Origin: Phycisphaerae bacterium
GTDB lineage: Bacteria; Planctomycetota; Phycisphaerae; UBA1845; JANYLN01
NCBI GenBank assembly: GCA_041687575.1
Contig: JAWLBS010000001.1
Coordinates: forward strand, 2,700-66,699
Direction: 5' to 3'
Length of the DNA stretch: 64,000 bases
Made by a program: the position numbers and the translations under genes. Positions 1,886 through 56,450 of the stretch are shown here, piece by piece (position 1 is the stretch's first letter; each line of letters begins with the position of its first letter). Below the pieces are notes generated by a model. The model was not told the DNA's origin. It saw nothing but the letters and a program-made list of their open reading frames with translations, and did not search any database.

Positions 1886-1913
1886 GGGAGCACGTGTGTG
1901 AGGAGTTTCGACT

Positions 1914-2876
1914 TTGTCCGCAACGCCGCTGGAAACGTTCATCCTGCCCGCCCTGGCCGGCGGGGGGTTCAGCCTTGTCGCCATCGCCTATCGCCTGGGC
2001 CAGCCGCGCAACATCATCCCCCTCGACATGCTCGGCATCTGCGGGGCGATCGGGGCGGTCCTGTTCGCCGGGCTGGGGATGCGAATCGGGTCGATCGCCG
2101 ATGTCCCCGCGCAGGTGTGGTTGTGGGGACTGGTCGGTGGGCTCGGCCAATATGTGGCGATCAAAATGCTCGGCTGCGCCCTGCGGATCGGGCCGCTCTC
2201 GCCGCTGTGGTGCGTGTTGAGCCTGGCCTTCGTGCCGACGCTGGTCTATGCACGGGTCTTTCTGACCGAAGACCTGCTGCCGCTGCAGTACCTGGCGATT
2301 GCCGCGAGCATCCTGTGCGTGCTGGTCGCCTCGATCCGACCGGCCGAGGACGCGGCGGCGGATGAGGGGGCCGCCTCGACAATCACCGCAGCCGCCGTTC
2401 GTGCGGCCCGGCTGCGCACCGGGCTGATCTACCTGGCGCTGCTGCTGGCGATCTTCATGATCAACAGCCTGCTGCCGATCGGCCAGCGGGTGCTGGGCGA
2501 GCTCAAGGCCGCCGACGGCCGGGGGTTCAACCTGCTGTACGGCCACTGGTTCCTGGCGACGGTCTATGCGATGCTCGCGGTGTGCGCGCTGCTGGATGCG
2601 GTCGCGACCGGCCGAACGCAGGCGTCCCGGCGGGCGCTGCTGGCGCTGGGCGTACTGGCCGGGGCGGGCTCGATGAGCGGGCTGGGCCTGCTGAACCTCT
2701 GTTCGTCATCGGCGATCGTCTACGCGGTAGCCGGCATCACACAGATCCTGATCGTCGCGGTGATCTCGGTGATCGCCTTCGGCGAGCGGACCTCGGCGAC
2801 CTGGTACGCCGCGCTGGCCCTGGGGGTGCTGGCGGTGGCACTGGCGAACTGGAACCAGGTCGTGGCTGGGCTCTGA
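1914..2876 (+). CDS. polytopic membrane protein, DMT/EamA-like (putative transporter)
   Basis: 320 aa, about 10 hydrophobic segments arranged as two halves. Lies 29 nt downstream of the aldolase gene. No diagnostic motif recognised. Confidence 0.5.
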   Translation: MSATPLETFILPALAGGGFSLVAIAYRLGQPRNIIPLDMLGICGAIGAVLFAGLGMRIGSIADVPAQVWLWGLVGGLGQYVAIKMLGCALRIGPLSPLWCVLSLAFVPTLVYARVFLTEDLLPLQYLAIAASILCVLVASIRPAEDAAADEGAASTITAAAVRAARLRTGLIYLALLLAIFMINSLLPIGQRVLGELKAADGRGFNLLYGHWFLATVYAMLAVCALLDAVATGRTQASRRALLALGVLAGAGSMSGLGLLNLCSSSAIVYAVAGITQILIVAVISVIAFGERTSATWYAALALGVLAVALANWNQVVAGL

Positions 2877-2893
2877 CAGGCATCCAAATCCGT

Positions 2894-3901
2894 CTACACA
2901 TACGGCAACGCCCCATCCTGCAAGAGCAGGCTCGTGCCCATCCCCTTCGCCCTCGCCCGGCGGAGGACCTCGGTGGCCATCGCCACATCGTGGATCGCCA
3001 TGCCGAAGTTGAGAGTGACGATCCGTTCGCGCGGGCACTGCCGCCCAGGGCGGGCGCCGCAGACGACCTCGCCCAGCTGCGCGTGCAGCGTCGGGGCAGG
3101 CTGATTCTCATAGAAGCCGCCCGGCCCGAACAGCACCGCGTGGAACTGCTGCCAGTCGTCGACGACGAACTTGTCCGCCTCGCGCAGGGCCTTGAGCTCC
3201 CACCCGCGGCTGTGGATCGGCAGCACCAGCACCCCCTCGCGGCGGACCCACTCATCGACAAAGAGCACCTCGTCGAGCACGCCCGTGGCCGTCACCGCCA
3301 CATCCGCGCCGCGGAGGACGGCCTCGGCCGAGACGCCCGCCTCGACCCGAAACCCGACCCGCCGCCCCATCGACTCCACGTACCGCTCCAGCGCCGCGGC
3401 GTCCGGGTCGTACACCCGTGCGACCTGCAGGTCCGGCAGCACCTGCGCCAACATCAGCAGGTTGTACCGCCCCTGCACCCCCGCCCCGGCGATGCCGAGC
3501 ACGCGGGCGTCGCGGTTGGCCAGGTATTTCGCCGCCACCGCCGAGACCGCCGCCGTCCGCAGCGCGGTAATGTAGGCGCAGTCCATCACCGCCGTCGGCA
3601 GGCCCGTGGCCACGTCGTTCAGCACGATCAGCCCGGTAATCGTCGGCAGGCCCCTGGCCGGGTTGCTGGAAAAGCCGCCGACCCACTTGAGCCCGGCCGC
3701 CCTCATCCGCGGCAGGTAGCCGGGCATCGCGTGCAGGAAGGCGTCGTGCAGCGGGTGCACGCCGGGCTTGGGCGGGTTCTCGTAGCGGCCTTCGCCGTGC
3801 TCGCGGAGGACGGCCTCGACGATGTCGATCGCGTCGGTGAGCTCCAGGCCGGCGTCGATCACCTCCTGCTGGGAGAGGTAGAGCATCTCTATTCGGTTCA
3901 T
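2894..3901 (-). CDS. ornithine cyclodeaminase / mu-crystallin family NAD(P)-dependent enzyme
   Basis: Start chosen at MNRIEMLYLSQQEV (ATG 3901). Family-typical TALRTAAVSAVAAKYLA and Rossmann LGIAGAGVQG. Convergent with the 3..2876 gene set. Confidence 0.8.
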   Translation of the reverse strand: MNRIEMLYLSQQEVIDAGLELTDAIDIVEAVLREHGEGRYENPPKPGVHPLHDAFLHAMPGYLPRMRAAGLKWVGGFSSNPARGLPTITGLIVLNDVATGLPTAVMDCAYITALRTAAVSAVAAKYLANRDARVLGIAGAGVQGRYNLLMLAQVLPDLQVARVYDPDAAALERYVESMGRRVGFRVEAGVSAEAVLRGADVAVTATGVLDEVLFVDEWVRREGVLVLPIHSRGWELKALREADKFVVDDWQQFHAVLFGPGGFYENQPAPTLHAQLGEVVCGARPGRQCPRERIVTLNFGMAIHDVAMATEVLRRARAKGMGTSLLLQDGALPYV

Positions 3902-4147
3902 GTGTGAGCCGTCTCCTTTCGGGCCAGCCGATGATCCTGAGGCAGCCTCGTGCGTATCCGATCCACCTGAAACAAGCACGGCCCTGCGAACGACCGCAGG
4001 CCAGTGGCACCCGACAACACCTTGATGCCGGATCGGGCAGCGACATCCGGAGCCTGAACGAGCACGGCCGCATTATCCACCATGCCGGGCTTTTGCATCA
4101 ATGCCGCACGCCTTACAATCTCAGTGATGGCACAAGGTGAGGAACCC

Positions 4148-4612
4148 ATGACAAGCGCCCTGCGCATCCTGATCATCCTGCTCGTCAGCGTCGGCTCGGC
4201 CGCGGCGGTCAACGCCATCCGCGCCGACGGCATCGACTGGTTCGTCGCGCGCGAGGTGATCTATCCGCCGCCCACGCCGGACCAGGCCGAGGCGGACATC
4301 GAGCGCGACGAGGTCCTCGCGGCCATCGAGCGGGGGGCGGTCGCCGTCGATGCCCGGCCGGCGCACCTGTTCGAACAGGGGCGCATCCCCGGGGCGGTGA
4401 ACATCCCGGCTGAGGAGCCGTTCGCCCACCTCGACGCTCTGTTCATGCGGGCGCTGCCGGAAACACTGGTCATCATTTACTGCGGCGGCGAACCGTGCGA
4501 CGACAGCCAGATCATCTTCGACCTGCTGCGGGACAACGGGTTTGAGAACGCACGGATCTACTTCGGCGGCTGGCGAGACTGGACCGAGGCCGGCTTGCCG
4601 GTGGAGCAATAG
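4148..4612 (+). CDS. membrane-anchored rhodanese-domain protein
   Basis: N-terminal TM (ILIILLVSVGSAAAV), then a rhodanese-like core (VDARPAHLFEQGRIPGAVNIP ... IIYCGGEPCDDS ... GGWRDW). AGGTGAGGA lies upstream of ATG 4148. ATGs at 4082 and 4127 are alternatives. Confidence 0.75.
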   Translation: MTSALRILIILLVSVGSAAAVNAIRADGIDWFVAREVIYPPPTPDQAEADIERDEVLAAIERGAVAVDARPAHLFEQGRIPGAVNIPAEEPFAHLDALFMRALPETLVIIYCGGEPCDDSQIIFDLLRDNGFENARIYFGGWRDWTEAGLPVEQ

Positions 4613-4709
4613 ATGTGCGGACCGAACAAGTTTTGCACGTGTGCCCGAAATGTGAGTCGCACGGCCCTGCAACGACGCAGGACCGCGGCAGCCGGCCAGA
4701 CACCGGAAG

Positions 4710-5261
4710 GTGAACACAGCTGACATGAAGCCCGACCAGCAGACACAGACATCTGAACCGCAAGCCGACCCGATCCCGCCGCCGCGGTGGCAGGCGTGGC
4801 TGATCGGTGAGCCGCACCCCGTCTGGACCTGGCTGTCGCGACTGAGTGGCTGGCTGCTGGCGGGGGTGTTCCTCTACGCGGGCGTCATCAAGATGCTCGA
4901 CCCGGCCGAGTTCGCCGTGCAGATCCGCAACTACCAGCTCGCCCCGTGGTGGGCGATCCACCCGGCGGCGATCTCGCTGCCGCTGGTGGAGATCGTCGCA
5001 GCTGTATTGCTGCTGCTGGGGATCTGGGCATTCGAGGCGACGGTCGTCCTGGGCGGGCTGCTGGTGCTGTTCATGGTCGGGATCGGCTGGGCGATGCACC
5101 TGGGGCTGGACGTCGAGTGTGGCTGTTTCGGCGGGGACAGCCGGGTGGGCTGGGGCCTGCTGCTCCAGGACGCCGCCCTGCTGGCCGCGGCGGGCATCAG
5201 CCTGCTGGCCCGTCGCCGCGGATCGTCCAGGTTCAATAAGAATGGCAACAACAACGAGTAA
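4710..5261 (+). CDS. MauE/DoxX-family membrane protein
   Basis: Four TM segments, AGVIKMLDP motif and CGCFG motif typical of the MauE (methylamine utilisation) / DoxX family. Follows the rhodanese gene. Confidence 0.7.
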   Translation: MNTADMKPDQQTQTSEPQADPIPPPRWQAWLIGEPHPVWTWLSRLSGWLLAGVFLYAGVIKMLDPAEFAVQIRNYQLAPWWAIHPAAISLPLVEIVAAVLLLLGIWAFEATVVLGGLLVLFMVGIGWAMHLGLDVECGCFGGDSRVGWGLLLQDAALLAAAGISLLARRRGSSRFNKNGNNNE

Positions 5262-5778
5262 TTTGCGGATTTCGCAAGATTGTGCAGCGCGGAGGGAAAC
5301 AGCCTTCCGCAGATTTCGCAGATTGACACAGATCAGAAACAACAACGGCAGGGGTCAGAGGTCAGGGATCAGGGGTCAGTGAGCAACAGCCACGGCAACA
5401 ACAAAGAATATATCAGCCACGGATGAACGCGGATGAAACGCGGATGAACGACAACGGCAGTTGTAGGGCGGGCTGCGCCCGCCAAAGCCGTTGCAGGGTG
5501 GGCGACTCTGCCCACCAAGGCACTGTGCCGGGTGGTCGCGCTGTCTGCGACCATGGATCCGCGGATTGGCGAGACTCCCGCAGACGGACGGGAAGGAGCC
5601 CGAAAGCGTCAGCGAGGGTGACTTTGTCCTTCCGCAAGGGCGAGACCTCCGCACCCCGCGCCAACGAGCCGCGACCGTGAGGGAGCGGTAATCTGTCGCA
5701 CCTACCCCACCCGCCGCCCTTGTCACCCTGCCACGCCGGCACGTTGTCATATTGTCATATTGTCACGTTGTCAGCCCC
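5262..5778. repeat. intergenic repeat mosaic (BIME-like) with REP-type palindromes
   Basis: Contains CGCAGATTTCGCAGATTGACACAGAT, (GGGGTCAG-like)n at 5351-5379, GCGGATGAA x3 and GTAGGGCGGGCTGCGCCCGCC at 5463-5483. Also contains GAGCCGCGACCGTGAGGGAGCGG and a TTGTCAYR tandem at 5741-5774. All modules recur elsewhere in the window. Confidence 0.75.
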
Positions 5779-6468
5779 TCACCCTGTCGCGCACATCAGG
5801 ATGTAGACCCACAGCGCCACCACCATCAGCGCCGTGCCGACGGCGACGTAGCCTAGCAGCTGCTTGATGAATTCCGGCACCCACCGAAACGGCATGTCCG
5901 CCACGATCGCGATCAGCGTCAGGGGGGTGAGCGCAAGGCCCACGACTCTGCCCAGTGGCCCGAGCAGCCGCCTGAGCGCCGACCGGACCGGCGTGCCCCC
6001 CGGTTTCGGCTCGCCCTTTGCCTCAGGGGCCGCGGGCTTGCCGGCCTGCAGCTGCTTGATCGCCTGCTTGATCTCCTGTTCCACCTCGTCGTCGGCGACG
6101 GGCTCTGTCTCGGCCGAGACGGGAGTATCGGCGCCGCCATCAGTCGCCCGACCGCCGGCGCGGCGATCGGCGAGCCTGACGGGCGCCGCGTCCGTGGGGG
6201 CGGATTCGGCGGCGTCGTCCATCAGCGGTTCGGGCCCGGTTGCGTCTAGGGACTCCTCCTCACCAGCGGCGTCGGCGGGATCGGCCCTGCCGACCTCCTC
6301 GACCAGCGTCGAGGCGGCTGATTCGAGATGATCGAGTTTCTTTTCGACCTCGGCCTCGTCCACCGGCTGCGTCAGGTCGTCCTGTCCGCGCGGCTGACTC
6401 GAACCGGGTTTTTCTGCGGGATCCACCTGGCACCTCCCTGCCGCACGCCCCGGGGGCACATGCGGCAC
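5779..6468 (-). CDS. hypothetical acidic protein with C-terminal membrane anchor
   Basis: ORF only. Asp/Glu/Ala/Pro-rich N-terminal ~160 aa, then two hydrophobic helices (VVGLALTPLTLIAIV, LLGYVAVGTALMVVALWVYILM). True start uncertain. Confidence 0.4.
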   Translation of the reverse strand: MPHVPPGRAAGRCQVDPAEKPGSSQPRGQDDLTQPVDEAEVEKKLDHLESAASTLVEEVGRADPADAAGEEESLDATGPEPLMDDAAESAPTDAAPVRLADRRAGGRATDGGADTPVSAETEPVADDEVEQEIKQAIKQLQAGKPAAPEAKGEPKPGGTPVRSALRRLLGPLGRVVGLALTPLTLIAIVADMPFRWVPEFIKQLLGYVAVGTALMVVALWVYILMCATG

Positions 6469-6592
6469 TCAACGATGTTTCATCGGCCCGAACCGGCTGC
6501 GGCCCAAGCGGCAAGCCGCACAAGGATCCGGGGCAGCCGCGTTGGCAACGACACCGGGACAAGCCGCCCCGTTTACCCTAAAATACGCCGGC

Positions 6593-7450
6593 ATGACCGA
6601 CCACTGGCTTTACAGCGAAAATCTGCCCGCCGCCCCGGCCGACTGGACGCTGGAGGGGTCCGAGGCCCAGCACGCCCGGGCCCGGCGCCTCACCGCCGAC
6701 GAACCGGTCCACCTGTTCGACGGCCGGGGCCGCGTCTGCGCCGCCCGTGTCCGTGCGGCCGATAAGCGGGTCCTGCGTTTGCGGATCGAGACGAGCGCGA
6801 CGCTGCCTCCCCGGCTGCCGCGCCTGACCGTCGCGGTCAGCCCCCCCAAGGGCGACCGGCTGGACTGGATGCTCGAGAAGCTGACCGAACTGGGCGTGGC
6901 CGCCATCCTGCCGATCCGCTGCAAGCGGTCGGTCGTCCAGGCGAAGGATGACCGGCTGGAACGGTGGCACCGGCGGTGCGTCGAAGCCGCCAAGCAGGCC
7001 CACGTGGCCCACGTGCCCGCGGTCGCCGAGCCGCTGGACTTGGCGCAGCTGCTCGGTGGCGCCGGGGAGTTCACCCACACGTTTGTGCCCGACACGGTCG
7101 GGTCGGTCCTGTCGATCCTGTCGGTGGAGCCCCTGTCGCTGAATGCCAGGCCGGTCGTCATTATCGGCCCGGAGGGGGGCTTTGCCGACCACGAGCGCGA
7201 CCTGATGACCCGCAGCGGCGCCCGGACGGTCGGCCTGGGGCCGACGGTCCTTCGCACGGAAACCGCCGCAATCGTCGCCGCCGCCTGTCTGCTGATTGCC
7301 GCCGACGCGCGGGCCGACCGGACAGCCGGCACGGTCGAACCGGCGAGCGAGGGCGACGGTCCCGCCGCCCCCTTGCTTCCGCCGGCCGGATCCGAGGGTC
7401 CCGCCAATCCCTCCAGCCCGCCGGCCGGACCGGGGGAGGCCGCGCCGTGA
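6593..7450 (+). CDS. rsmE: 16S rRNA (uracil1498-N3)-methyltransferase RsmE, with Pro/Ala-rich C-terminal extension
   Basis: HARARRL, PPKGDRLDWMLEKLTELGV, IGPEGGF and LGPTVLRTETA motifs. Start taken at MTDHW (ATG 6593). Confidence 0.85.
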   Translation: MTDHWLYSENLPAAPADWTLEGSEAQHARARRLTADEPVHLFDGRGRVCAARVRAADKRVLRLRIETSATLPPRLPRLTVAVSPPKGDRLDWMLEKLTELGVAAILPIRCKRSVVQAKDDRLERWHRRCVEAAKQAHVAHVPAVAEPLDLAQLLGGAGEFTHTFVPDTVGSVLSILSVEPLSLNARPVVIIGPEGGFADHERDLMTRSGARTVGLGPTVLRTETAAIVAAACLLIAADARADRTAGTVEPASEGDGPAAPLLPPAGSEGPANPSSPPAGPGEAAP

Positions 7451-8274
7451 CCTTCGAACCGACCCTGTCCGCCCAGCGGCTGCAGGCCGCCTTGCGGACC
7501 CGCCGGATCGGCCGCCGCCTGCACAGCCTTGCCGAAGCCGACAGCACCAACAGCATCTGCTGGCAGCACCTGGAGGCGGAAGAGGCCGGGGCCGACGGCA
7601 CCGTCGTGCTGGCCGATTACCAGACCGCGGGCCGCGGCCGGTTCCACCGCGTCTGGCTGGCGCCGCGGGCGTCGAGCGTGCTTCTGAGCGTCCTGATCGT
7701 CCAACCGGCCGAACCGCTGTTGGCCGAGCGGCTGAGCCTGATCGCCGGGATTGCCGGCTGCTTGGCGTGCCGTAGGGCCAGCGACGCCGAGATCCAGCTT
7801 CGCTGGCCCAACGATCTGGTCTGCCGACGGCGGAAGGTCGGGGGCATCCTCGTCGAGTCCCGCGCGATGCCGGACGCCCGGGTCGCCGCGGTGATCGGGG
7901 TCGGCATCAACTGCCTGCAGCACGCCGGCCACTTCCCGCCGGACCTGCGCGACCGGGCGGCGTCGCTGGACATGGTCAGCCCCAACCCCATCTCAAGATT
8001 TGACCTGGCTGTCGACCTGCTGGGCCGCCTGGACGCATGGTTCGCCAGCCGGCCGCTGCCCGGCGCCGAGGTCGTGCGGGCGAAATGGCAGGACCTGGCC
8101 GAACCGCCGGGCATGCGGGTCTGCCTGATCCACGCCGGCCGGCGTTACTATGGCACGACCATAGAGCTGGACCCGGCCGGCGGCCTGCTGGTGCAGCTGG
8201 ATTCGGGGGGGCGACGCATTTTCCCGGCGTCAACGACGACGCTGGAAGCGACCGATCCGCCGCCGGCAGCTTGA
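7447..8274 (+). CDS. birA: biotin--[acetyl-CoA-carboxylase] ligase
   Basis: GTG 7447 overlaps the rsmE stop (GTGA). QTAGRGRFHRVW (GRGRxGRxW-type biotin-binding loop), GIGINC. No N-terminal HTH domain visible. Confidence 0.85.
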   Translation: MTFEPTLSAQRLQAALRTRRIGRRLHSLAEADSTNSICWQHLEAEEAGADGTVVLADYQTAGRGRFHRVWLAPRASSVLLSVLIVQPAEPLLAERLSLIAGIAGCLACRRASDAEIQLRWPNDLVCRRRKVGGILVESRAMPDARVAAVIGVGINCLQHAGHFPPDLRDRAASLDMVSPNPISRFDLAVDLLGRLDAWFASRPLPGAEVVRAKWQDLAEPPGMRVCLIHAGRRYYGTTIELDPAGGLLVQLDSGGRRIFPASTTTLEATDPPPAA

Positions 8275-8760
8275 TTATAAGCGGCGTCTGCGCCGCGCTG
8301 CATAGTCGGGCAGCGGCATTCAACGTGAGATTCGAGAGTCGCGCAGCTGGGAGGCTTGGGTGAAAGCGGCGTCACGGCCGCCGCAGTCCACAGTCGTCGC
8401 TGATCGTCCCGTTAAGTTTGAGAGCGGGGAACCGAGGGCGGCTTGATTGAAAGCGGCGTCTTTGGCGTCGCACTTCAAGGGCTGTCGCCGTCTTTCACGG
8501 CCCTGCGCCCGGCTTCGTTGGACGCCGGCTGAGCAGGGCGGGTCGCGGGAACGTGGCGCCCCCTGACTCTCCTTTCGCCCCTGACGGGGGCTTTGGCGGG
8601 CACAGCCCGCCCTACAACTGCCGTTGTTATTTCTAATCTGTGTCAATCTGCGAAATCTGCGGAAGGTCGTTTCGCTCCGTCCTGTACACGTTATCAGAAT
8701 CTGCGGACGGCTGCTGTTGTCGTTCACTGGCAACTGTCCGTTGGCCACTGCCTGTCCCCT
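8269..8760. repeat. intergenic repeat mosaic
   Basis: Three direct copies of GCTTG(A/G)TTGAAAGCGGCGTC..GCCGC at 8269-8296, 8354-8384 and 8441-8473. REP GGCGGGCACAGCCCGCCCTAC at 8595-8615. Inverted copy of the CGCAGATTTCGCAGATTGACACAGAT module at about 8635-8665. Confidence 0.7.
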
Positions 8761-9088
8761 GCAACCTGCCACCAGCGTTTGCCCGAGACGCAGCTGTATC
8801 CGATATCTACGCATGGCGGCGGGCCGACCGTAGGGTCCCCGCCTGATCGTATCAGCCGGAACGTTTGCGGCGACCGTCGCTCGGCCGACTCGCCATGTCG
8901 ATGAACCTTAATCACTTAACAGCCTGTTGGCCGTCCCGTCGTCCGGATAAAAACCGCCGCGGCGACCCTGGCCGATCGGTCAGGCGCCGGCGGGGTCAGT
9001 CCGGTAGCGCCCGCCGTCGATACCACGTTGAGGCGGGACGACTGGCGCTGGACTCGCCGGTACGGGCTGGAAAAGGGGATAGCGACGG

Positions 9089-9520
9089 ATGCAACGCGAA
9101 AAGGACAAAAAGACCAAGGTGAGCTGGATCGAAGTCGCGATGGTCACCGTTGTGCTGGCGGTGCTGGCGGCCCTGGTCACGCCGGAGCTTAGCCAGGCCG
9201 GGCGCGATCCGCGACAACTCGACTTGAGCCTCGAGGTCCAGGTCGTCCGCGGGCAGATCGAAATGTACCGCCTCCAGCACGACAAGCAGTACCCCGCGCT
9301 GGAGACCTTCGCCAGCCAGATGACCGGCGTGACCGACAGCCAGGGCCGCATCGGCGAGCCGGGCGACGCCGGCTGTCAACTCGGGCCGTACCTGCGGGAA
9401 GTCCCGATCAACCCCTACTGCGGAACCAACACCGTCGGCGACGGACCGGGCGGCACGAGCGCCTGGTATTACAACCACAAGACCGGTGAATTCCGGCCGA
9501 ACCATCTGAACCTTCACTGA
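9089..9520 (+). CDS. GspG/pseudopilin-like protein with non-canonical N-terminus
   Basis: Hydrophobic N-terminal helix VSWIEVAMVTVVLAVLAALV keeps the Glu at the pilin +5-like position but lacks the usual Gly before it. VRGQIEMYRLQHDKQYPAL resembles the GspG core helix motif. Confidence 0.55.
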   Translation: MQREKDKKTKVSWIEVAMVTVVLAVLAALVTPELSQAGRDPRQLDLSLEVQVVRGQIEMYRLQHDKQYPALETFASQMTGVTDSQGRIGEPGDAGCQLGPYLREVPINPYCGTNTVGDGPGGTSAWYYNHKTGEFRPNHLNLH

Positions 9521-46442: not shown

Positions 46443-46988
46443 TCAGGCCAGCGCACCGTTCGGTCCGGCGGGGGCATCCTGCTGGTCCGCGGAGGGCTGC
46501 GGCAGCGCCGGTTCGCGATCCCACGACTGCGTCGCCTGCTCCAATTCCCTCAGTTCGGTGCCGATCGCGTAGATCTCTTCGTCCGCCGGTTCGGCCGGGA
46601 GCATGGCAGGCAGGGTCGCGGCGAACAGGTCGAGACTGACCGCCTCATCGGCCGTGTCGCGATCCATGGTCCGGTCCGCGATGCGCCGTGCCTGGTCCGC
46701 TGTCTGAAGCTGGATCAGGCGGCCGCGCACGAACAGGCCGGCCCCGACCGTCAGGATCACTACCGCGGCGGTTGCAGCCAGCCATCCGGCGCTGCGCCGC
46801 CAGGCAGGCATGTGCGATGGCGAGTGTAGCATTTCCTGCCGCAGCCTCGCTTTGACGCGACGCAGCGTCTCATCGGAGGGGGCGGCGGCGGCCTCGACGC
46901 GGTGGCGCAGTGCCGCCTCTGCCTGGAGGATCTGCTGTTCTATCTGCTCGTACTGCTTTTCCATATCCGTATCTGTTCGTTTCGACAT
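46443..46988 (-). CDS. putative anti-sigma factor (single-pass membrane protein)
   Basis: Position directly after the ECF sigma gene. N-terminal helical cytoplasmic part, one TM (WLAATAAVVILTVGAGLFV), short periplasmic tail. No zinc (HxxxCxxC) motif. Confidence 0.55.
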   Translation of the reverse strand: MSKRTDTDMEKQYEQIEQQILQAEAALRHRVEAAAAPSDETLRRVKARLRQEMLHSPSHMPAWRRSAGWLAATAAVVILTVGAGLFVRGRLIQLQTADQARRIADRTMDRDTADEAVSLDLFAATLPAMLPAEPADEEIYAIGTELRELEQATQSWDREPALPQPSADQQDAPAGPNGALA

Positions 46989-47019
46989 CGTGCAACTCCC
47001 GTGCAATCGCTTTTCGCGC

Positions 47020-47616
47020 TCAATCGGGGGCGTCGCCCAACCTCTCCCGCAGGTGCTTCAGGCCCCGGTGTGCCCTGGCCAGGGCGGTGCCCAGCGGTAT
47101 CTGCAGCATCTCGGCGATCTGCTTGAAGGGCAGATCGGAGAAGAACCGCAGGAGGATCACTTCCCGCTGGGTCTCGCTGAGTGTCGCGAGTGCCTGCTCC
47201 AGCGTCTGGGCCTGTTCCACCTGCAGGAGTCGGCTGTCCGGGCCGGGCCCCTCCCCCGCCAGCCGGGCGATGCAGTCCTGACCGTCCTGGCCCGTGGCGA
47301 CCGGGACCGCCCGGCCGCGACGGCGGATCGCGTCGCGGGCGAGATTGGCGGCGATGCTGAACAGCCACGGCTCGAACCGGCCGTCCTCGCGGTACCGCCC
47401 GAGCCCCCGCAACATTTTGACGAAGGTCTCCTGGAGCAGGTCCTCGGCCTGTGCCGCTGAGCCCACCATTCGATACAGCAAGCCGTAAAGCCTTGGGGCG
47501 TAAGCGTCGACCAGCCGATCGACGGCGTCGGTCTGGCCTGATTTCGCCCGGCTTACCAGCTCGGTCAAGTCGGTTGTCTGTTCTATCCGTTCCAAGGTTC
47601 TACCTGTATAACGCAT
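47020..47616 (-). CDS. ECF (group 4) RNA polymerase sigma factor
   Basis: Region 2 DLLQETFVKMLRGL..PWLFSIAANLARD. Region 4 LSETQREVILLRFFSDLPFKQIAEMLQIPLGTALARAHRGLKHLR. Start at MRYTGR (ATG 47616). Confidence 0.85.
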   Translation of the reverse strand: MRYTGRTLERIEQTTDLTELVSRAKSGQTDAVDRLVDAYAPRLYGLLYRMVGSAAQAEDLLQETFVKMLRGLGRYREDGRFEPWLFSIAANLARDAIRRRGRAVPVATGQDGQDCIARLAGEGPGPDSRLLQVEQAQTLEQALATLSETQREVILLRFFSDLPFKQIAEMLQIPLGTALARAHRGLKHLRERLGDAPD

Positions 47617-47675: not shown

Positions 47676-47703
47676 TTGAATTCCTTCTGGCCAACGGTAC
47701 AAT
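47676..47703 (+). promoter_or_regulatory. sigma70-type promoter of rpmB
   Basis: TTGAAT (47676-47681), 16 nt, TACAAT (47698-47703). Confidence 0.5.
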
Positions 47704-47755: not shown

Positions 47756-48013
47756 ATGCCTCGAGTTTGCCAATTTACCGGTAAGAAAACAATACACGGA
47801 CGCAGCATCACCCGCCGCGGCAAGGCCAAGTACCTCGGCGGCGTCGGCGTCAAGACCACCGGCATCACCAACCGGAAGTTCAAGGCGAACATCCAGAAGG
47901 TCAGGGCGGTTGTCAATGGCGTGGTGGTCCGCGTCAAGGCCTCGGCCAAGGCGATGCGCCTGGGCCTGATCGAAAAGCCGGTCAAGCGGAATTACAAGCC
48001 CGAGCAGTCGTAG
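47756..48013 (+). CDS. rpmB: 50S ribosomal protein L28
   Basis: MPRVCQFTGKKTIHGRSITRRGKAK... matches the L28 N-terminal signature (M-x-R-x-C-x-x-TGK). Confidence 0.9.
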   Translation: MPRVCQFTGKKTIHGRSITRRGKAKYLGGVGVKTTGITNRKFKANIQKVRAVVNGVVVRVKASAKAMRLGLIEKPVKRNYKPEQS

Positions 48014-48053
48014 ACGGCCCGGCTTCTTTACGAACACGGTTTCGATCGTTAGA

Positions 48054-48084
48054 AAACGAGGCTGTCACCGGCCTCGTTTTTTCT
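48054..48084 (+). terminator. intrinsic terminator after rpmB
   Basis: ACGAGGC (48056-48062) pairs with GCCTCGT (48071-48077), followed by TTTTTT. Confidence 0.6.
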
Positions 48085-48120: not shown

Positions 48121-48441
48121 ATGTCGGAAAGCAGGAAGGTCAGCGAGCAGCAGGTCCGCCACATCGGGCTGCTGAGCCGCCTGAACTTATCGGACGAAGA
48201 GGTGGGGCTGTTCAGCGGGCAGCTCTCCTCGATCGTCGAGTACATCGAGCAGCTGAGCGAGGTGGACACGGCTGGCGTCGAGCCGACCGCCCACGCCCTG
48301 CCGCTGCGCAACGTGACGCGGCCGGACGAGGTCGGGCTGACCACGCAGCCCTTAGGGCCCGACGGCGTGCTGGCCAATGCCCCGGACCGGGACGGGAGTT
48401 TCTTCCGCGTGCCCAAGGTGCTGGAGCAGGACAGCGCGTAG
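48121..48441 (+). CDS. gatC: Asp/Glu-tRNA amidotransferase subunit C
   Basis: VRHIGLLSRLNLSDEEV...IVEYIEQLSEVDT...EPT pattern typical of GatC. 106 aa. Confidence 0.9.
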   Translation: MSESRKVSEQQVRHIGLLSRLNLSDEEVGLFSGQLSSIVEYIEQLSEVDTAGVEPTAHALPLRNVTRPDEVGLTTQPLGPDGVLANAPDRDGSFFRVPKVLEQDSA

Positions 48442-48498
48442 GGGACAGGGGGCAGGTGACGGGTTACAGGGGACACAGCCGATCGAAAGCCGGGGCCG

Positions 48499-49275
48499 GT
48501 GATGAAACTGAAGACCCGTATCCGCTTGATCCTGAAGGACCAGATGCCTCGCGCGTACCTGGTCCTGGCCGGGTTGTTCGTCGTCATCGGGCTGGTGCAG
48601 TGCGTCCGGTGGCAGGTTTCGGGCCTGACCGCGCTGTCCGTGCTGGTGAGCTTCGCTCCGGCGGCTGCATTTGCCGCGGCGTATGCCGCGACCCGCAGAA
48701 AGTGGATCTCTGCGATGCCCGGCATCGCGACGGCCTTTTGCCTGCTGGTGCTGGGGCATTGGGGGGCCGTTACCCTTGCCATCGAAGCCCTTAACTCGGC
48801 CACAGCAGAAGTGACCGATGCGGGTGAGTACGCGTCGGTGCTTGATGAGTACTGGAGCTCGAACAGTGACCTCGTCAGCCATTTCCCCCGGCCGATCCCT
48901 TCCGAGGCGCGAGATGTGCGGTTTTCGTTTCAGCCGGGATTTCTGCAGGGTGGGACCCATGTGCAGCTGCGATTCTCGGTGCCCGAGCAGGAGATTTCGG
49001 ACCTGTACGAACATTTTGCCGCCATCAGGACGAAGTCGTTCCATGGTGGTGACTGGGGCGAGCACGCGAATGCGAAAGATGGCATGCCGACGACCTGGTT
49101 TCACACGGGCGACTCGCAGGACAGATCGTTTCCAGCTGATTATGAGGTCATGATCCTGGACCCTCTCCTGACCGAACAGGAGCGGGCGACGGGAAGCTGG
49201 AACCACGGCCGGAGTCATGGCGTGGCTATCAGCCGGGAGCGGGGCGAGATCGTTTACTGGGCGGAGGACTGGTGA
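48499..49275 (+). CDS. hypothetical membrane protein inserted between gatC and gatA
   Basis: ORF only. Three or four N-terminal TM helices, then a ~150-aa soluble domain with no motif I recognise. Confidence 0.5.
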   Translation: MMKLKTRIRLILKDQMPRAYLVLAGLFVVIGLVQCVRWQVSGLTALSVLVSFAPAAAFAAAYAATRRKWISAMPGIATAFCLLVLGHWGAVTLAIEALNSATAEVTDAGEYASVLDEYWSSNSDLVSHFPRPIPSEARDVRFSFQPGFLQGGTHVQLRFSVPEQEISDLYEHFAAIRTKSFHGGDWGEHANAKDGMPTTWFHTGDSQDRSFPADYEVMILDPLLTEQERATGSWNHGRSHGVAISRERGEIVYWAEDW

Positions 49276-49352
49276 CCGCCCGCCTACGGTCGAGCAGGCC
49301 CTTGTCTCGTGCTGTACAATGGCCGGACATTTGAACAAGAGGAAACGCCGAG

Positions 49353-50813
49353 ATGCAGACTGCGTATCAGATAAGTCAGGCAATCCGAAGTGGCAAGTTG
49401 ACCGCTGAGCAGGCCGTGACGGCTTCGCTCGAGGCGATCGGCAAGCTCGACCCGCAGGTCCGGTCGTTTCTGTGGGTCAACCAGCAGGGGGCACTCGAGG
49501 CCGCGCGGCAGATCGACAGGCGAATCGCCGCGGGCGAGGCGGTCGGGCCGCTGGCGGGGGTGCCGGTGGCGGTCAAGGACAACATCTGCACCATGGTCGG
49601 CCGGACGACCTGCGCGTCAAAGATCCTGGAAAACTTCCAGAGCCCCTATAACGCCCACGTGATCGACCTGCTGGAAAAGGCCGGGGCGGTCGTCGTCGGC
49701 AAGACCAATCTCGACGAGTTCGCCATGGGCTCATCGACGGAGAATTCCGCCCTGGCGGCCACCCGCAACCCGTGGGACATGGAGAAGGTCCCCGGCGGCT
49801 CGTCGGGCGGTTCGGCGGCGGCGGTGGCCGGTCGGATGGTGCCGGTGGCGCTGGGGTCGGACACGGGCGGGTCGATCCGCCAGCCGGCCAGCTTCTGCGG
49901 CGTGACGGGTCTCAAGCCGACGTACGGGCGGGTCAGCCGGTTCGGGCTGGTCGCCTTCGGCAGCAGTCTCGACCAGATCGGGCCGTTTGCCACCGACGCC
50001 CGCGATGCGGCGCTGCTGCTGCAGGCGGTGGCCGGCCACGACCTGCGGGATTCGACCTCGGCTGACGAGCTAGTGCCGGACTATCTGCAGCAGATCGAGT
50101 CGCTGGAGCTGCCGCTGAAGGTGGGGATCGCCGCGGAATACTTCGGCGAGGGGCTCGACCCGCAGGTGAGGGTCGCGGTCGAGGCGGCGATCGAGCTGCT
50201 CAAGGGCAAAGGGGCCCAGATCGTCGAGGTGCACCTGCCGCATCTGAAGTACGCGGTGGCGACCTACTACATCGTCGCGACGGCCGAGGCATCCAGCAAC
50301 CTCGCCCGCTACGACGGCGTGCACTACGGCCACCGCACCGCCCAGCCGCGGGATTACATTGATATGTACTGCACCAGCCGGGCCGAGGGTTTCGGCCAGG
50401 AGGTCAAGCGGCGGATCATGCTGGGGACGTTCACGCTGTCCAGCGGCTACTACGACGCGTACTACAACAAGGCGTTGAAGGTCCGCACGCTGATCAAGCG
50501 GGACTTCGAGCGTGCGTTCGAGCAGTGCGACGTGATCGTCTCGCCGACGGCCCCCGCGCCGGCCTGGACGCTCGGGCAGATGGCGGACGACCCGCTGGCG
50601 ATGTACCTGGCGGACATCTACACGATCTCGGCGAACCTGGCGGGCATCCCGGGCATCAGCGTGCCGTGCGGGCTGAGCAATGCCGGCCTGCCGATCGGGA
50701 TGCAGCTGATGGGCAGGCACTTCGCCGAAGGGCGGCTGCTGCAGGCGGCGTGGGCGTATCAGCAGGAGACCGACTGGCACAAGAAGCAGCCGGAGCTGGC
50801 GGTGGGCAGTTAG
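49353..50813 (+). CDS. gatA: Asp/Glu-tRNA amidotransferase subunit A
   Basis: Amidase signature GGSSGGSAAAVA, GSDTGGSIRQPA, KDN. Confidence 0.95.
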   Translation: MQTAYQISQAIRSGKLTAEQAVTASLEAIGKLDPQVRSFLWVNQQGALEAARQIDRRIAAGEAVGPLAGVPVAVKDNICTMVGRTTCASKILENFQSPYNAHVIDLLEKAGAVVVGKTNLDEFAMGSSTENSALAATRNPWDMEKVPGGSSGGSAAAVAGRMVPVALGSDTGGSIRQPASFCGVTGLKPTYGRVSRFGLVAFGSSLDQIGPFATDARDAALLLQAVAGHDLRDSTSADELVPDYLQQIESLELPLKVGIAAEYFGEGLDPQVRVAVEAAIELLKGKGAQIVEVHLPHLKYAVATYYIVATAEASSNLARYDGVHYGHRTAQPRDYIDMYCTSRAEGFGQEVKRRIMLGTFTLSSGYYDAYYNKALKVRTLIKRDFERAFEQCDVIVSPTAPAPAWTLGQMADDPLAMYLADIYTISANLAGIPGISVPCGLSNAGLPIGMQLMGRHFAEGRLLQAAWAYQQETDWHKKQPELAVGS

Positions 50814-50886
50814 CTATGGCAACAAGCGACGCAAGCATCTCTTCGTGCCACTGGGAAACGCACCAAGGTGGCGATTGGAATCGGGC

Positions 50887-51771
50887 ATGAGTTGGCTACT
50901 GTTTCTTGACGAAAGCGGACATGACCATCTGAACGCACCGTATGAGGTTCACGGTGGCATTGCGATTCATGCATCGAAGCTTTGGGCCTTCATCCAGGCC
51001 GTGAAGACGCTGGAACAGTCGGTCTTCGGTGCGGATCTGCGTGAATACGATGTCGAAATCAAAGGAGCGAAGCTGCTTCGCCGTCGGTGTTTCGATTGGC
51101 AGGGCCAAGGCGTTGTACTCGACAACGCCGCACGGAGGAAGCATGCGCTCAACTTCCTTAATTGTGGCAAGCAGGATCGACGGCCTCGGCGGGAAGAATT
51201 CACTGCTTACGGACAGGCATGCATCGCCATGGCAGAGGGAGTGATCCAGCTCCTCAAGAGTCATGATGCAATGCTTTTCGCGGCTGTGGTTCCTCGTCAT
51301 GTGAGGCCGTCAGCGACACCGACAGACTACCTGCGCAAGGATCTGGTCTTCCTGCTGGAACGTTACTTCTACTTCCTCGAGCTCCGGCAGGAAAACGGGT
51401 TGCTTGTCATGGACGGGTCCGACAAGGCCGCGGATAGGCATGTCGTTCGCTGTATGGAGCGATACTTCACGCTAACGCAGGTTGGACGTCAGCGAACACA
51501 GTGGATCGTGCCGGTTCCACTGTTTGTGGAATCTGATATGGCTTACGGCGTCCAAGCGGCCGATCTGTGCATCTACTGCCTTAACTGGGGTTGGCGTTCG
51601 CGCGAGATGACAGAGGCAACCCGGGCGGAGATAGAGCCGTTCGTGTGGTTGCTTGGGAAATTCATGTGGCACGGGGATGGCGAACGAGGAGGCAAAGTGT
51701 TCAAGACGCACGGCGTGTTCTATCTGCCGAACCTGTACGAGGTGGGGCAGGCGCAAGAAAAAAGCAGGTAA
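50887..51771 (+). CDS. DUF3800-like protein, low-GC insertion between gatA and gatB
   Basis: Starts MSWLLFLDESGH (the xxxDESG opening typical of DUF3800). 294 aa. Visibly lower GC (mid-50s % by eye) than flanking genes. Confidence 0.6.
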   Translation: MSWLLFLDESGHDHLNAPYEVHGGIAIHASKLWAFIQAVKTLEQSVFGADLREYDVEIKGAKLLRRRCFDWQGQGVVLDNAARRKHALNFLNCGKQDRRPRREEFTAYGQACIAMAEGVIQLLKSHDAMLFAAVVPRHVRPSATPTDYLRKDLVFLLERYFYFLELRQENGLLVMDGSDKAADRHVVRCMERYFTLTQVGRQRTQWIVPVPLFVESDMAYGVQAADLCIYCLNWGWRSREMTEATRAEIEPFVWLLGKFMWHGDGERGGKVFKTHGVFYLPNLYEVGQAQEKSR

Positions 51772-51917
51772 TGCCCTCGGAGCCACCGTAGCAGCTCCTC
51801 GGCCGAACCTGCACTATAAGTATCGACGCGATGCGCACCTTTGTCAAGAAGGAACAGTGCGAGGAGCTCCGGGCCCGGGAAACTCTCGTAAGGGAAGCCC
51901 TTGAAGGATAAGAAGAT

Positions 51918-53408
51918 ATGACCACAACAACCGACCTCAAGACCCGGCCGATCATCGGCCTGGAAATCCACGTGCAGCTGGCGACGAAGACCAAGATGTT
52001 CTGCTCGTGCCCGATCGAGTTCGCCGGCGAGCCGAACAGCCGGGTCTGCCCCGTCTGCATGGGCATGCCCGGCGTGCTGCCGGTGATCAACAGGCAGGCC
52101 GTCGAATACTCGATCCGGCTGGGCATGGCGGTGGACTGCCAGATCTCGGAGTTCACCAAGTGGGACCGCAAGAGCTACTACTACCCGGACCTGCCCAAGA
52201 ACTACCAGATCAGCCAGTACGACCTGCCGCTGTGCCATGATGGCCACTTCGACATCCGGACCGACGCCGGCACCAAGCGGATCCGCATCCGCCGGGCCCA
52301 CCTCGAGGAGGACGCCGGCAAGAACCTGCACGAGGGGCTCGACCACACGCGGGTGGATCTGAACCGCGCGGGCACGGCCCTGCTGGAGATCGTTACCGAG
52401 CCGGACATCGCCAACGCCGACGAGGCGTACACCTTCTGCACCGAGCTGCAGCGGCTGGTCCGCTGGCTGGGCATCAGCGAGGCCGACATGCAGAAGGGGC
52501 ACATGCGGTTCGAGCCGAACGTCAACGTCGCGATCACCGTTCCGGACGGCAGGGAATACCGCACGCCGATCATCGAGATCAAGAACCTCAACAGCTTCCG
52601 CTCCGTCCGCAACGCGATCGCCTACGAGATCCAGCGGCAGGTCGGCGAGTGGGAGGCCGACCACGATTACACGATCGAGAAATTCGGCAAGGAGAACCGC
52701 GGCTGGGACGACGACCGCGGCGTCAGCGAGTTCCAGCGGGGCAAGGAAGAGGCCCACGACTATCGCTACTTCCCCGACCCGGACCTGGTGCCGATCGTCC
52801 CCGAGCAGGCCTGGCTCGATGAGATCCGCAGCCAGATGCCCGAGCTGCCGATCGCCCGCCAGCGCCGGCTGATCGACACGCACGGGTTGACCGAGGCCGA
52901 GGCGGTGCAGATCGTCACCGACCGGGCGACCGCCGACCTGTACGAGGCCGCCATCGCGGCTGGCGGGGACGCCAACGTGCTGGCGCGGGAATTCGTCTCG
53001 TTCTGGGCGATGCACGCCAACGCCCGCCAGTGCACGATCGCCGAGCTCGGCATCGACGCGGCGCGGATCGGCCAGCTCTCGCGGCTGGTGGCCGACAGCA
53101 CGATCAACGCCACCGCGGCTGCGACGATCGCCGAAAAGATGCTCACCAGCCCCGACGGACCCGAGCAGATCGCCAAAGCGGAAAACCTCATCCAGACCTC
53201 CGACGCCGGCGCCCTGGAGACGCTGGTGGACGAGGCGTTGGCCGCCAACCCCAAGGCGGTCGAATCGGCTGCGCCGGGCCACAAGAAGCAGAAGGCCTCG
53301 TTCGGCTTCTTGACTGGCCAGGTGATGAAGGCCTCCGGCGGCCAGGCGAACCCGAAGGTGGTGCAGGAGATTTTGACGAGGAAGCTGGCGGAGATTTATC
53401 CGGAGTAG
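51918..53408 (+). CDS. gatB: Asp/Glu-tRNA amidotransferase subunit B
   Basis: IGLEIHVQLATKTKMFCSC, VCPVCMGMPGVLPV, DLNRAGTALLEIVTEPD, C-terminal YqeY-like tail. Confidence 0.95.
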   Translation: MTTTTDLKTRPIIGLEIHVQLATKTKMFCSCPIEFAGEPNSRVCPVCMGMPGVLPVINRQAVEYSIRLGMAVDCQISEFTKWDRKSYYYPDLPKNYQISQYDLPLCHDGHFDIRTDAGTKRIRIRRAHLEEDAGKNLHEGLDHTRVDLNRAGTALLEIVTEPDIANADEAYTFCTELQRLVRWLGISEADMQKGHMRFEPNVNVAITVPDGREYRTPIIEIKNLNSFRSVRNAIAYEIQRQVGEWEADHDYTIEKFGKENRGWDDDRGVSEFQRGKEEAHDYRYFPDPDLVPIVPEQAWLDEIRSQMPELPIARQRRLIDTHGLTEAEAVQIVTDRATADLYEAAIAAGGDANVLAREFVSFWAMHANARQCTIAELGIDAARIGQLSRLVADSTINATAAATIAEKMLTSPDGPEQIAKAENLIQTSDAGALETLVDEALAANPKAVESAAPGHKKQKASFGFLTGQVMKASGGQANPKVVQEILTRKLAEIYPE

Positions 53409-53880
53409 TAGGGCGGGTTGTGCCCGCCAAAGTTGCCAGTTGCCAGTGAACGGCAGGGATCAGGGGTCAGGGGGCAGGGGATCGGGTGGCAAAGGTCAGT
53501 GGATCGGGTGCCGCGGTCCTGCACAAACGAGCCGCGACCGTGAGGGAGCGGTAGATCACGTAGGGCGGGTTGCCTGCGGTGAGCGAGCACAGCGAGTCGA
53601 ACCGTGTCCGCCAAGTTCGGAGTCCCGGCTTCAGCCGGCGCTTGGAGTACCTGCTTCAGCAGGCGTTCGGAGTACCGCCTTCAGGCGGTCCGCCCGAGCA
53701 AGCGCAGCGACGCGAGTGGCCGAGCTGCGTAGTTCGGGGTGCCGAACGCCAAGCAGGGCCTTGCGTCGTGGCGGATTGCAGCATCGCGTGGCATCGTGGC
53801 ATCCGGCAGCTTCAGGCGGACCTTGAATCAGGCCCCTGATGCCAGAGGCAGGTAGTCGCCGTACGGCTGTATCGGACGTC
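53408..53880. repeat. intergenic repeat mosaic
   Basis: REP GTAGGGCGGGTTGTGCCCGCC at 53408-53428, starting on the last base of the gatB stop. GGGGTCAG-type tandem at 53451-53512. GAGCCGCGACCGTGAGGGAGCGG. REP long form at 53560-53612. Repeated GTTCGGAGT(A/C)CC..CTTCAG units at 53620-53700. Confidence 0.75.
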
Positions 53881-56019: not shown

Positions 56020-56450
56020 GCGCTGGGTTCTGGGGGAGCCTCAACCTGCGGTTGGAGCCAGCGCAGGGCGTTCATCAGGGGTCTGACCCCGAGTCGCACG
56101 TTTCCCAGCGGAATCAACGCCTGGATTTCGGGGCGGCCTGGACGGGGGTGCATGTCACCGGGGTCTGACCCCGTGGGCCTCGATGATACGGCCCTGACAC
56201 AGGACTGTGGCACTCGTCGGGGTTCACCGCTCCCTCACGGTCGCGGCTCGTTGGTACAGGACCGAGGCACCCCTTGCAGCGTCTTCCCAAGGGGGGCAGA
56301 CCCGGGTGAGTCCTTCAGGTGTCGGTGCCGCCAAGGGAATTGGGACCGTGGACTCGAATGTGGGCGTGTTGCCAGAGGTCAGACCCCCGGCAGGCGCCTT
56401 GCTCTGCTGTTGATCCCGGAATGCCTCCGGCGACTCGCATACGGCGTTTC
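56020..56450. repeat. intergenic repeat mosaic with GGGGTCWGACCCC hairpins
   Basis: Hairpins at 56078-56090, 56160-56172 and 56375-56388. Inverted CCGCTCCCTCACGGTCGCGGCTC module at about 56228-56250. Confidence 0.6.

Follow-up and report, generated by a model that had tools for sequence, protein, structure and literature searches.

Passenger genes at both junctions of a gatCAB cluster in a Phycisphaerae bacterium, one of them followed by a predicted convergent small RNA

Foreign genes at the two gatCAB junctions

The gatC, gatA and gatB genes of a Phycisphaerae bacterium are examined here on a stretch of 64,000 nucleotides (nt) of contig JAWLBS010000001.1 (GenBank assembly GCA_041687575.1), which is referred to as the window throughout. 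The cluster comprises five open reading frames (ORFs) on the plus strand, namely gatC (48121-48441), a gene for a protein of 258 amino acids (aa) designated X258 (48499-49275, with a GTG start codon and an ATG at 48502), gatA (49353-50813), a gene for a 294-aa DUF3800 protein (50887-51771) and gatB (51918-53408). The coordinates and the spacers of 57, 77, 73 and 146 nt listed in an initial annotation of this DNA agree with ours to the base. All three gat genes are present and exceed the curated cutoffs of their equivalog models in profile searches: gatC matches TIGR00135 with 82.5 bits (cutoff 47.1) and PF02686 with 85 bits, gatA matches TIGR00132 with 629 bits (cutoff 481), and gatB matches NF004012 with 554 bits (cutoff 338) as well as PF02934 and PF02637. 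The cluster retains the C-A-B order and the common strand of a GatCAB operon without its short junctions, as gatC and gatA are separated by 911 nt and gatA and gatB by 1104 nt, compared with medians of 35 nt (n = 57) and 32 nt (n = 33) in relatives.

These relatives are the 80 most similar GatA loci, one genome per species, in each of which the gat genes were mapped. Gene-sized gat gaps were found among them only in a handful of Phycisphaerae-type genomes (L001, L002, L011 and L037), with a smaller gap of 414 nt in L038. The closest GatA proteins, those of L001 and L002, are 82% and 81% identical to that of the window, and a search of 5.8 billion proteins returned no GatA closer than about 81-82%. 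Three further relatives, L180, L181 and L182, were inspected for gene context. In L182 (GatA 75% identical) the same neighbourhood is uninterrupted: a minus-strand gene for an extracytoplasmic function (ECF) sigma factor is followed by rpmB, gatC, 66 nt, gatA, 64 nt and gatB. The rpmB gene, encoding ribosomal protein L28 (PF00830), is the conserved neighbour 5' of gatC, lying at 47756-48013 on the plus strand of the window, and its synteny with gatC is common to L002, L180, L181 and L182. The uninterrupted arrangement of the clade is rpmB-gatC-gatA-gatB.

The cargo of the two junctions varies within the clade. The gatC-gatA junction contains X258 in the window, a MazEF pair in L002 and L180 and an esterase gene in L011, and is free of cargo in L001, L037 and L182. 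At the gatA-gatB junction, the window harbors the DUF3800 gene together with a predicted small RNA (sRNA) gene, L001 and L002 an ATPase pair resembling MAD3/MAD4, L011 genes for proteins of 189 and 188 aa, and L037 a gene for a HEAT-repeat protein. L180 (GatA 80% identical) is occupied at both sites, in the order gatC, mazE, mazF, gatA, a 101-aa gene, a DUF2283-like gene and gatB. L181 (also 80%) has gatA and gatB adjacent and a gatC-gatA gap of 409 nt (4592-5000) without a called gene, which holds short ORFs only and could be a relic of lost cargo or a non-coding element. As a separate observation, gatB of L180 has its ATG at 7098 and is called only from 7440 to 8444 (334 aa, GatB_N only), which suggests a frameshift caused by an assembly error or marking a pseudogene.

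Four of the seven cargo types are toxin-antitoxin (TA) or anti-phage defence modules. The MazEF cargo of L002 and L180 consists of adjacent, overlapping genes for a MazE antitoxin (PF04014, 38.9 and 42.6 bits) and a PemK/MazF toxin (PF02452, 88 and 90 bits). The cargo pair of L001 and L002 combines an AAA_15/AAA_21 ATPase, matched in PADLOC by mad3 (E = 3e-32) and HEC-01A (E = 2e-37), with a protein scoring 222 bits against the MAD4 equivalog NF047734 (cutoff 160). The pair is 70% identical between these two genomes and their GatA proteins are 83% identical, which fits inheritance from a common ancestor. In all seven interrupted genomes and at both junctions, the cargo shares the strand of the gat genes.

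The view of the initial annotation that the two genes of the window are insertions rather than parts of an ancestral operon is borne out by the gap medians, the uninterrupted L182, the occurrence of homologues elsewhere and a deviant G+C content at third codon positions (GC3). The latter is 0.764 for X258 and 0.644 for the DUF3800 gene, the lowest among eight genes measured in the region, versus 0.935, 0.914 and 0.944 for gatC, gatA and gatB. The synteny comparison which that annotation proposed shows the five-gene order to be unique to the lineage of the window among the relatives. Given that junction content differs across the clade, this order is specific to one lineage and both junctions are recurrent cargo slots. 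The accompanying remark on essential operons as unusual landing sites is contradicted in this clade, in which both gatCAB junctions have been occupied repeatedly. Each of the two gat junctions of the window has received a foreign, co-oriented gene in a lineage-specific manner.

Passenger 1, X258, has no match in Pfam, NCBIfam, PADLOC or PHROG. Its call as a membrane protein is supported by the structure prediction suggested at the time, although the searches with hidden Markov models that were suggested alongside gave no family. The AlphaFold2 model, with a predicted local distance difference test score (pLDDT) of 94.4, contains three long hydrophobic N-terminal helices followed by an alpha/beta domain, and has no significant match among PDB structures. 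The 108 homologues lack any Pfam domain and are almost all unnamed, the few named ones being from Planctomycetota. They share a C-terminal domain of about 150 aa, preceded by one to three hydrophobic helices and marked by the motifs HFP..IP, PGFLQGG.H.QLR, GMPTT and WNHG.SHGVAIS...EIVYWAE.W. Because of its basic N-terminus and three helices, we infer that X258 is membrane-anchored with the C-terminal domain facing outward. Homologues reside in unrelated neighbourhoods, with gat genes at none of five loci and no conserved non-coding flanks at these five.

The DUF3800 gene and its predicted convergent sRNA

Passenger 2 matches PF12686 with 49.9 bits (cutoff 21) over profile positions 1-147 of 149. 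DUF3800 proteins are predicted to adopt an RNase H-like fold, that of an RNase H2-like nuclease, and have been linked to type VII retrons and to Cas12a2, Cas12a3 and type VI-F loci (PMC7736814, PMC10910872, PMC12669027, PMC13594972, the fold being treated in the first three). The DE and QxxD motifs defined for the family (PMC7736814) are intact here as D8, E9, Q223 and D226, and are invariant in 33 sequences. PADLOC yielded no match and PHROG a single weak one to a family without an assigned function. A viral origin was also considered and rejected, there being no relative in IMG/VR. In the public record of the source contig the gene is called at 180 aa (protein P0202), 61% of the intact 294-aa ORF; the full ORF aligns end to end with homologues of about 288 aa, and the deposited annotation probably has a wrong start.

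A total of 1645 homologues were found in Phycisphaerae, Sedimentisphaerales and other groups, many of them 60-79% identical. Identity of the homologues reaches 79% in genomes in which that of GatA does not exceed 69%, and this higher similarity of the DUF3800 proteins than of GatA among the same groups suggests horizontal spread. Gene context was studied at 87 homologue loci, at none of which the gene lies between gatA and gatB. Instead, DUF3800 homologues occupy restriction-modification operons and defence islands, and the upstream gene that abuts them is usually a restriction-modification component. In the Phycisphaerales metagenome-assembled genomes GCA_023384195 and GCA_048500435 (loci L090 and L091), the gene lies within a type I restriction-modification operon, between hsdS and hsdR, and its ATG overlaps the hsdS stop codon. 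This operon (region 106-9123) holds a second embedded gene, for a TIR-domain protein, between hsdM and hsdS, and is followed by genes for a helix-turn-helix protein and a Peptidase_M78 protein. At L096, L166, L122 and L109 the DUF3800 gene is located directly 3' of DNA methylases, an Eco57I-type enzyme or an SNF2-PLD protein, and at L088 it lies beside AAA_13 and STAND ATPases. Distant homologues (35-39% identical) are carried on alphaproteobacterial plasmids, once right after repC, as gene GAL_RS20950 on plasmid pGal_E78 of Phaeobacter gallaeciensis DSM 26640 (L175, 1855-2818); the same Phaeobacter gene is found on plasmids of at least five Phaeobacter strains. The notion that DUF3800 genes always stand behind a co-oriented gene was discarded, as a crude ORF analysis of 40 loci counted 21 co-oriented and 19 opposite upstream genes. 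No sequence upstream of the ATG is conserved among the DUF3800 loci.

The 3' flank, on the other hand, is conserved. When 3' flanks from unrelated contexts were aligned, a conserved non-coding stretch of about 95 bases became apparent, beginning at the DUF3800 stop codon, and the conserved unit extends from the DUF3800 ATG to the -35 hexamer of a promoter on the opposite strand. The initial annotation overlooked what this flank appears to encode in the 146-nt spacer of the window, namely a gene for a convergent sRNA that would be transcribed from a promoter of its own and end at its own terminator. Along the minus strand, the order is TTGACA (51847-51842), 17 nt, GATACT (51824-51819), 6 nt, a three-helix hairpin running from 51812 to 51764, and a U-tract, so that the promoter occupies 51819-51847 and the sRNA of about 56 nt would span 51757-51812. 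The predicted transcript is cis-encoded and convergent, and overlaps the 3' end of its partner mRNA: the DUF3800 ORF ends at 51771, and its final 15 nt and 3' flank lie opposite the sRNA. Its U-tract is complementary to the last Lys/Glu codons and the terminator overlaps the stop codon.

The hairpin was evaluated on 51 distinct sequences that were aligned blind to structure. Its 17 base pairs are formed in 97.9% of cells. Compensatory changes occur at 10 of the pairs, such as CG in place of GC in 9 sequences, AU in place of GC in 10 and UA in place of CG in 17. In 500 column shuffles these values were never reached, and sliding the partners by 1-3 columns lowered pairing to 42-56%. G-U pairs account for 20% of the paired cells, and reading the plus strand reduces pairing to 78%. 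In the window, the minus strand folds with -31.6 kcal/mol (z = -3.0) compared with -21.7 kcal/mol for the plus strand, on which the hairpin is weaker and without a U-tract. The promoter of the window scores 10 of 12 matches in the promoter scan; of the 51 sequences, 43-50 conserve TTGAC and the A, T and A of the second hexamer, and 39 of the 44 that could be parsed have the 17-nt spacing. Hardly any variation is seen in the internal-loop bases UCGGC and GCAUU, and since antisense pairing alone would not need such constancy, it points to recognition by a protein.

A covariance model built for this element, R1, finds it at 81 of the 87 DUF3800 loci, in every case in antisense orientation and directly next to the stop codon, and at least four of the six negative loci end at or near the end of the gene. 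R1 matches once in the 64-kb window, and seven control loci that lack a DUF3800 gene gave no match. Weak matches in the expected position were seen on Phaeobacter and Sphingomonas plasmids, including a shortened antisense element at 2727-2818 of L175, which overlaps the DUF3800 stop codon (27.4 bits, E = 8e-5). Searches against Rfam gave no match for the sRNA at E <= 5 (9.5 kb), at E <= 10 (221 nt) or at the gathering score (20 loci). Taken as a prediction from comparative sequence data, the sRNA is very probably a real gene, and passenger 2 is best described as a two-part module of the DUF3800 gene and a convergent sRNA gene with a putative sigma-70 promoter. Most likely the sRNA controls or partners DUF3800. 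Its more specific action as a cis-antisense repressor is a plausible option, to which we give slightly less than even chances.

Transcription of the cluster and alternative explanations

The promoter scan recognised no sigma-70-like site on the plus strand between gatC and gatB, and no terminator-like sites were found on that strand in the spacers of the gat cluster. The initial annotation had seen no terminators between the five genes. This stands for the first three spacers, which are unstructured relative to shuffled sequences (z > 0), and fails for the fourth, which holds the terminator hairpin of the antisense sRNA. The first spacer (48442-48498) is G-rich (GGGGACAGGGGGCAGG) and without significant structure (z = +0.67), the second (49276-49352) has a z of +0.79, and the third (50814-50886) is free of structure and of promoter-like sites. 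The last 70 nt 5' of gatB (51848-51917) contain an AAGGA ribosome-binding site and neither a promoter-like site nor significant structure. In relatives, the cargo ends 16-29 nt (L001 and L002) or 41 nt (L180) before the gatB ATG, which leaves no room for a promoter. Similarly, in L090 and L091 the modelled sRNA region extends about 10 nt past the -35 hexamer, and hsdR begins 27 nt after its outer end. These features suggest that the gat genes and their passengers are co-transcribed, a conclusion toward which we lean by a small degree. The constitutive expression and the resistance to loss that the initial annotation attributed to such passengers are speculative.

Under such a scheme the passengers would be expressed via read-through from the gat transcription unit, and gatB would be reached by transcription crossing the DUF3800 module, as must be the case for hsdR where the same module sits between it and hsdS. 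Cargo in antisense would be expected to break the expression of the putatively essential downstream gat genes, which may be why the cargo is found in sense only, and the strict orientation fits selection against disrupted downstream transcription. The sRNA would target DUF3800 either as a cis-antisense, antitoxin-like repressor acting at the 3' end of the mRNA, or as an RNA partner or cofactor bound by the protein through the invariant internal-loop bases. In either role, the module could regulate itself behind any promoter at which it lands.

The strongest competing explanation is that the operon has dissolved, so that the gat genes are transcribed independently, the passengers have promoters of their own, and the shared orientation merely reflects replication or strand bias. 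Dissolved gat operons are common in Planctomycetota. Several of our results weigh in this direction and against a single transcription unit. In 47 of the 80 relatives no gatB is present on the same strand within 6 kb 3' of gatA, so co-transcription of gatB with gatC and gatA is not obligatory. A TACAAT hexamer without a recognisable -35 (49315-49320) precedes gatA by 33 nt. A strong, canonical terminator-like hairpin with a T-run lies between rpmB and gatC (48044-48075, plus strand, about 45 nt 5' of gatC, identified by sequence and fold and kept in L002), and the gatC promoter must therefore be one that the scan did not recognise. Promoters in this phylum are poorly defined, and the failure to find any on the plus strand is for that reason weak evidence. 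DUF3800 modules elsewhere often follow a divergent gene and hence can be self-sufficient; with a co-oriented upstream gene at only 21 of 40 loci, many copies must rely on promoters of their own that are not conserved. Read-through into gatB could also be attenuated by the convergent sRNA promoter and hairpin.

Two further points tell against parts of our explanation other than transcription. Alignments with L001 and L002 lose similarity exactly at the gat stop and start codons and gave no insertion ends at nucleotide resolution. Furthermore, the RNase H fold of the DUF3800 protein was not confirmed with its AlphaFold2 model (pLDDT 89), for which Foldseek returned no PDB hit with E < 0.001 and no TM-score above 0.18.

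Against a dissolved operon stand the co-orientation of the cargo at both junctions in seven of seven interrupted genomes, the short spacers without terminators, and the cargo ending 16-41 nt from the gatB ATG in three relatives. Moreover, the sRNA promoter demonstrates that canonical sigma-70 sites are recognisable in this DNA, yet none was found on the plus strand. On balance, independent transcription appears a minority explanation, although one to be taken seriously.

Far less probable is that the element behind the DUF3800 gene is no RNA gene and acts at the DNA level, for example as a hairpin used in recombination or transposition, or that it is simply a terminator working in both directions. 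Its conservation does end sharply at the ATG and at the -35 hexamer, as would fit the two ends of a mobile unit. Terminal inverted repeats, however, were not seen, and the conserved -35 and -10 hexamers with their 17-nt spacing are directed into the hairpin, whose U-tract exists on the minus strand only. The 20% of paired cells that are G-U on that strand would be C-A mismatches on the other, and a plain terminator would not need invariant bases in its internal loop. Capture as an integron cassette was rejected as well: the spacers after gatC, X258 and gatA are unstructured (z > 0; no dedicated attC model was run), the only hairpin has a promoter and a U-tract, and an integrase was not seen among the ORFs between 45 and 56.5 kb. 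A proposal that the 57-nt and 77-nt spacers represent the split 144-nt gatC-gatA spacer of L001 was not significant (z = 1.98, with local scores at shuffle level), and comparison of the window spacer detected no remnants of MAD3/MAD4 flanks.

A functional unit, in which X258, DUF3800 or both would act with GatCAB in tRNA metabolism, for instance as a tRNA nuclease, is very improbable. It could draw on the occurrence of DUF3800 proteins with tRNA-cleaving Cas12a3 systems (PMC13594972), and on an unrelated metagenomic contig (L157) where the DUF3800-sRNA module (2458-3354, plus strand) lies about 1.3 kb from a divergent gatB (5-1111, minus strand; 43% identical), a proximity which, at one of 87 loci, is probably coincidental. 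Neither gene was ever found between or beside co-oriented gat genes (0 of 87 loci for DUF3800, 0 of 5 for X258), close relatives carry other cargo or none at the same junctions, and tightly linked partners of DUF3800 are usually restriction-modification genes; a functional link between the passengers and the gat genes was rejected on this synteny. That the interruption is an artefact of assembly or binning can practically be dismissed, for although the DNA comes from a metagenome assembly, as a contig of 73,417 nt, its reading frames are intact, its junction spacers are continuous, and seven independent assemblies of relatives are interrupted at the same junctions.

The explanation we favour, and consider likely as a whole, is that gat junctions of this clade bear cargo that is expressed by read-through, and that the DUF3800 gene and its sRNA form one such module. 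A bolder extension is offered only tentatively: DUF3800 and the sRNA might constitute a new protein-RNA addiction or defence module, and the gatCAB junctions might serve as a dedicated TA and defence hotspot in this Phycisphaerae clade. The module would then be a predicted RNase H-like nuclease that is checked or guided by a cis-antisense RNA and could plug into any host operon, including those for restriction-modification and gatCAB. TA and defence genes residing in the hotspot would gain read-through expression and protection from deletion.

Other features of the surroundings deserve mention. The sole promoter-like site on the plus strand of the neighbourhood, TTGAAT-16-TACAAT at 47676-47703, is located between the ECF sigma factor gene (47020-47600, minus strand) and rpmB. 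This gene is divergent from rpmB-gatC, a layout kept across the clade (L001 and L180-L182), and is followed by two small genes (46443-47006, minus strand) that may encode an anti-sigma factor. A G-rich 16-mer, GGGGNCAGGGGGCAGG, has only two copies in 64 kb, the first of which (48441-48456) begins on the final base of the gatC stop codon and the second (53463-53478) 55 nt past the gatB stop. The intact gatC-gatA spacer of L001 contains (GGGTTCA)x4 and similar G-runs (5874-5901), and the 16-mer may be native to the 3' ends of gat genes, as a G-quadruplex-forming or a regulatory sequence. The window also contains five copies of a dispersed repeat of about 47 nt (core CCTCACGGTCGCGGCTCGTT), where 0.01 would be expected by chance, at 53506-53552, at 56226-56272, and near 5663, 31808 and 35460. 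Two of its copies, 94% complementary, form an inverted pair that flanks a P559-DUF4870 gene pair just 3' of gatB, and the repeat looks like a repetitive extragenic palindromic (REP) or miniature inverted-repeat transposable element (MITE) type of sequence.

Relation to known systems and significance

Defence islands and integration hotspots between conserved core genes have been described for the pan-genomes of E. coli and Pseudomonas, and hotspots of variable cargo are usually described between operons. The gat junctions resemble them in having a fixed site, conserved flanks and varying cargo (MazEF, the MAD3/MAD4-like pair, DUF3800). They differ in that the slots lie inside a putatively essential, co-oriented cluster, receive one or two genes each and always in sense, and show no integrase, tRNA gene or flanking repeats. 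The cargo pair of L001 and L002 is shared with the methylation-associated defence system (MADS), as MAD3/MAD4, and with the PADLOC candidate HEC-01, although the slot has two genes only and the pair is absent from the window itself.

Type I TA systems with an antitoxin RNA that overlaps the 3' end of the toxin gene include txpA/RatA and bsrG/SR4 of Bacillus subtilis. The DUF3800-sRNA pair agrees with them in comprising a predicted small RNA that is convergent, has its own promoter and terminator and is fully complementary to the 3' end of the partner mRNA, and in travelling together, also on plasmids and once next to repC. Its partner is, however, a 294-aa soluble predicted nuclease rather than a small hydrophobic or membrane peptide, and the invariant loop bases suggest recognition by a protein over pure antisense pairing.

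With the DUF3800 proteins of type VII retrons and of type V-A2, V-A3 and VI-F CRISPR systems (PMC7736814, PMC10910872, PMC12669027, PMC13594972), the protein of the window shares the Pfam family, both motifs (DE and QxxD) and a link to defence systems, here in the form of restriction-modification operons. In contrast to those, it stands alone at about 290 aa, is not fused to TPR or reverse-transcriptase domains, and has no retron or CRISPR locus nearby. Eleven DUF3800-associated RNA motifs, DUF3800-I to -XI, have been reported, some of which are in Rfam, such as RF02969 and RF02968 (Weinberg et al., 2017, PMC5737381). They too are structured RNAs neighbouring DUF3800 genes, in which some unpaired bases are conserved and a Rho-independent terminator is present. 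The sRNA predicted here is set apart by the lack of a match to an Rfam model and by a fixed geometry, convergent and overlapping the stop codon, with a recognisable promoter. This geometry makes a cis-antisense role possible. By these comparisons, the candidate DUF3800-associated sRNA motif is new and previously unlisted.

An interrupted operon alone would be a curiosity; it is the recurrent TA and defence cargo and the new sRNA motif that give it its worth. A hotspot inside a putatively essential operon, with cargo constrained in orientation, would be a natural setting in which to test how host transcription is exploited by selfish or defence genes. The sRNA also adds a well-supported case to the question of why DUF3800 nucleases are shadowed by structured RNAs. 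With its fixed convergent geometry, defined promoter and terminator, covariation and invariant loop bases, this case is perhaps easier to interpret, and since a shortened version exists on plasmids of the cultivable Phaeobacter gallaeciensis, the protein-RNA relationship is directly testable.

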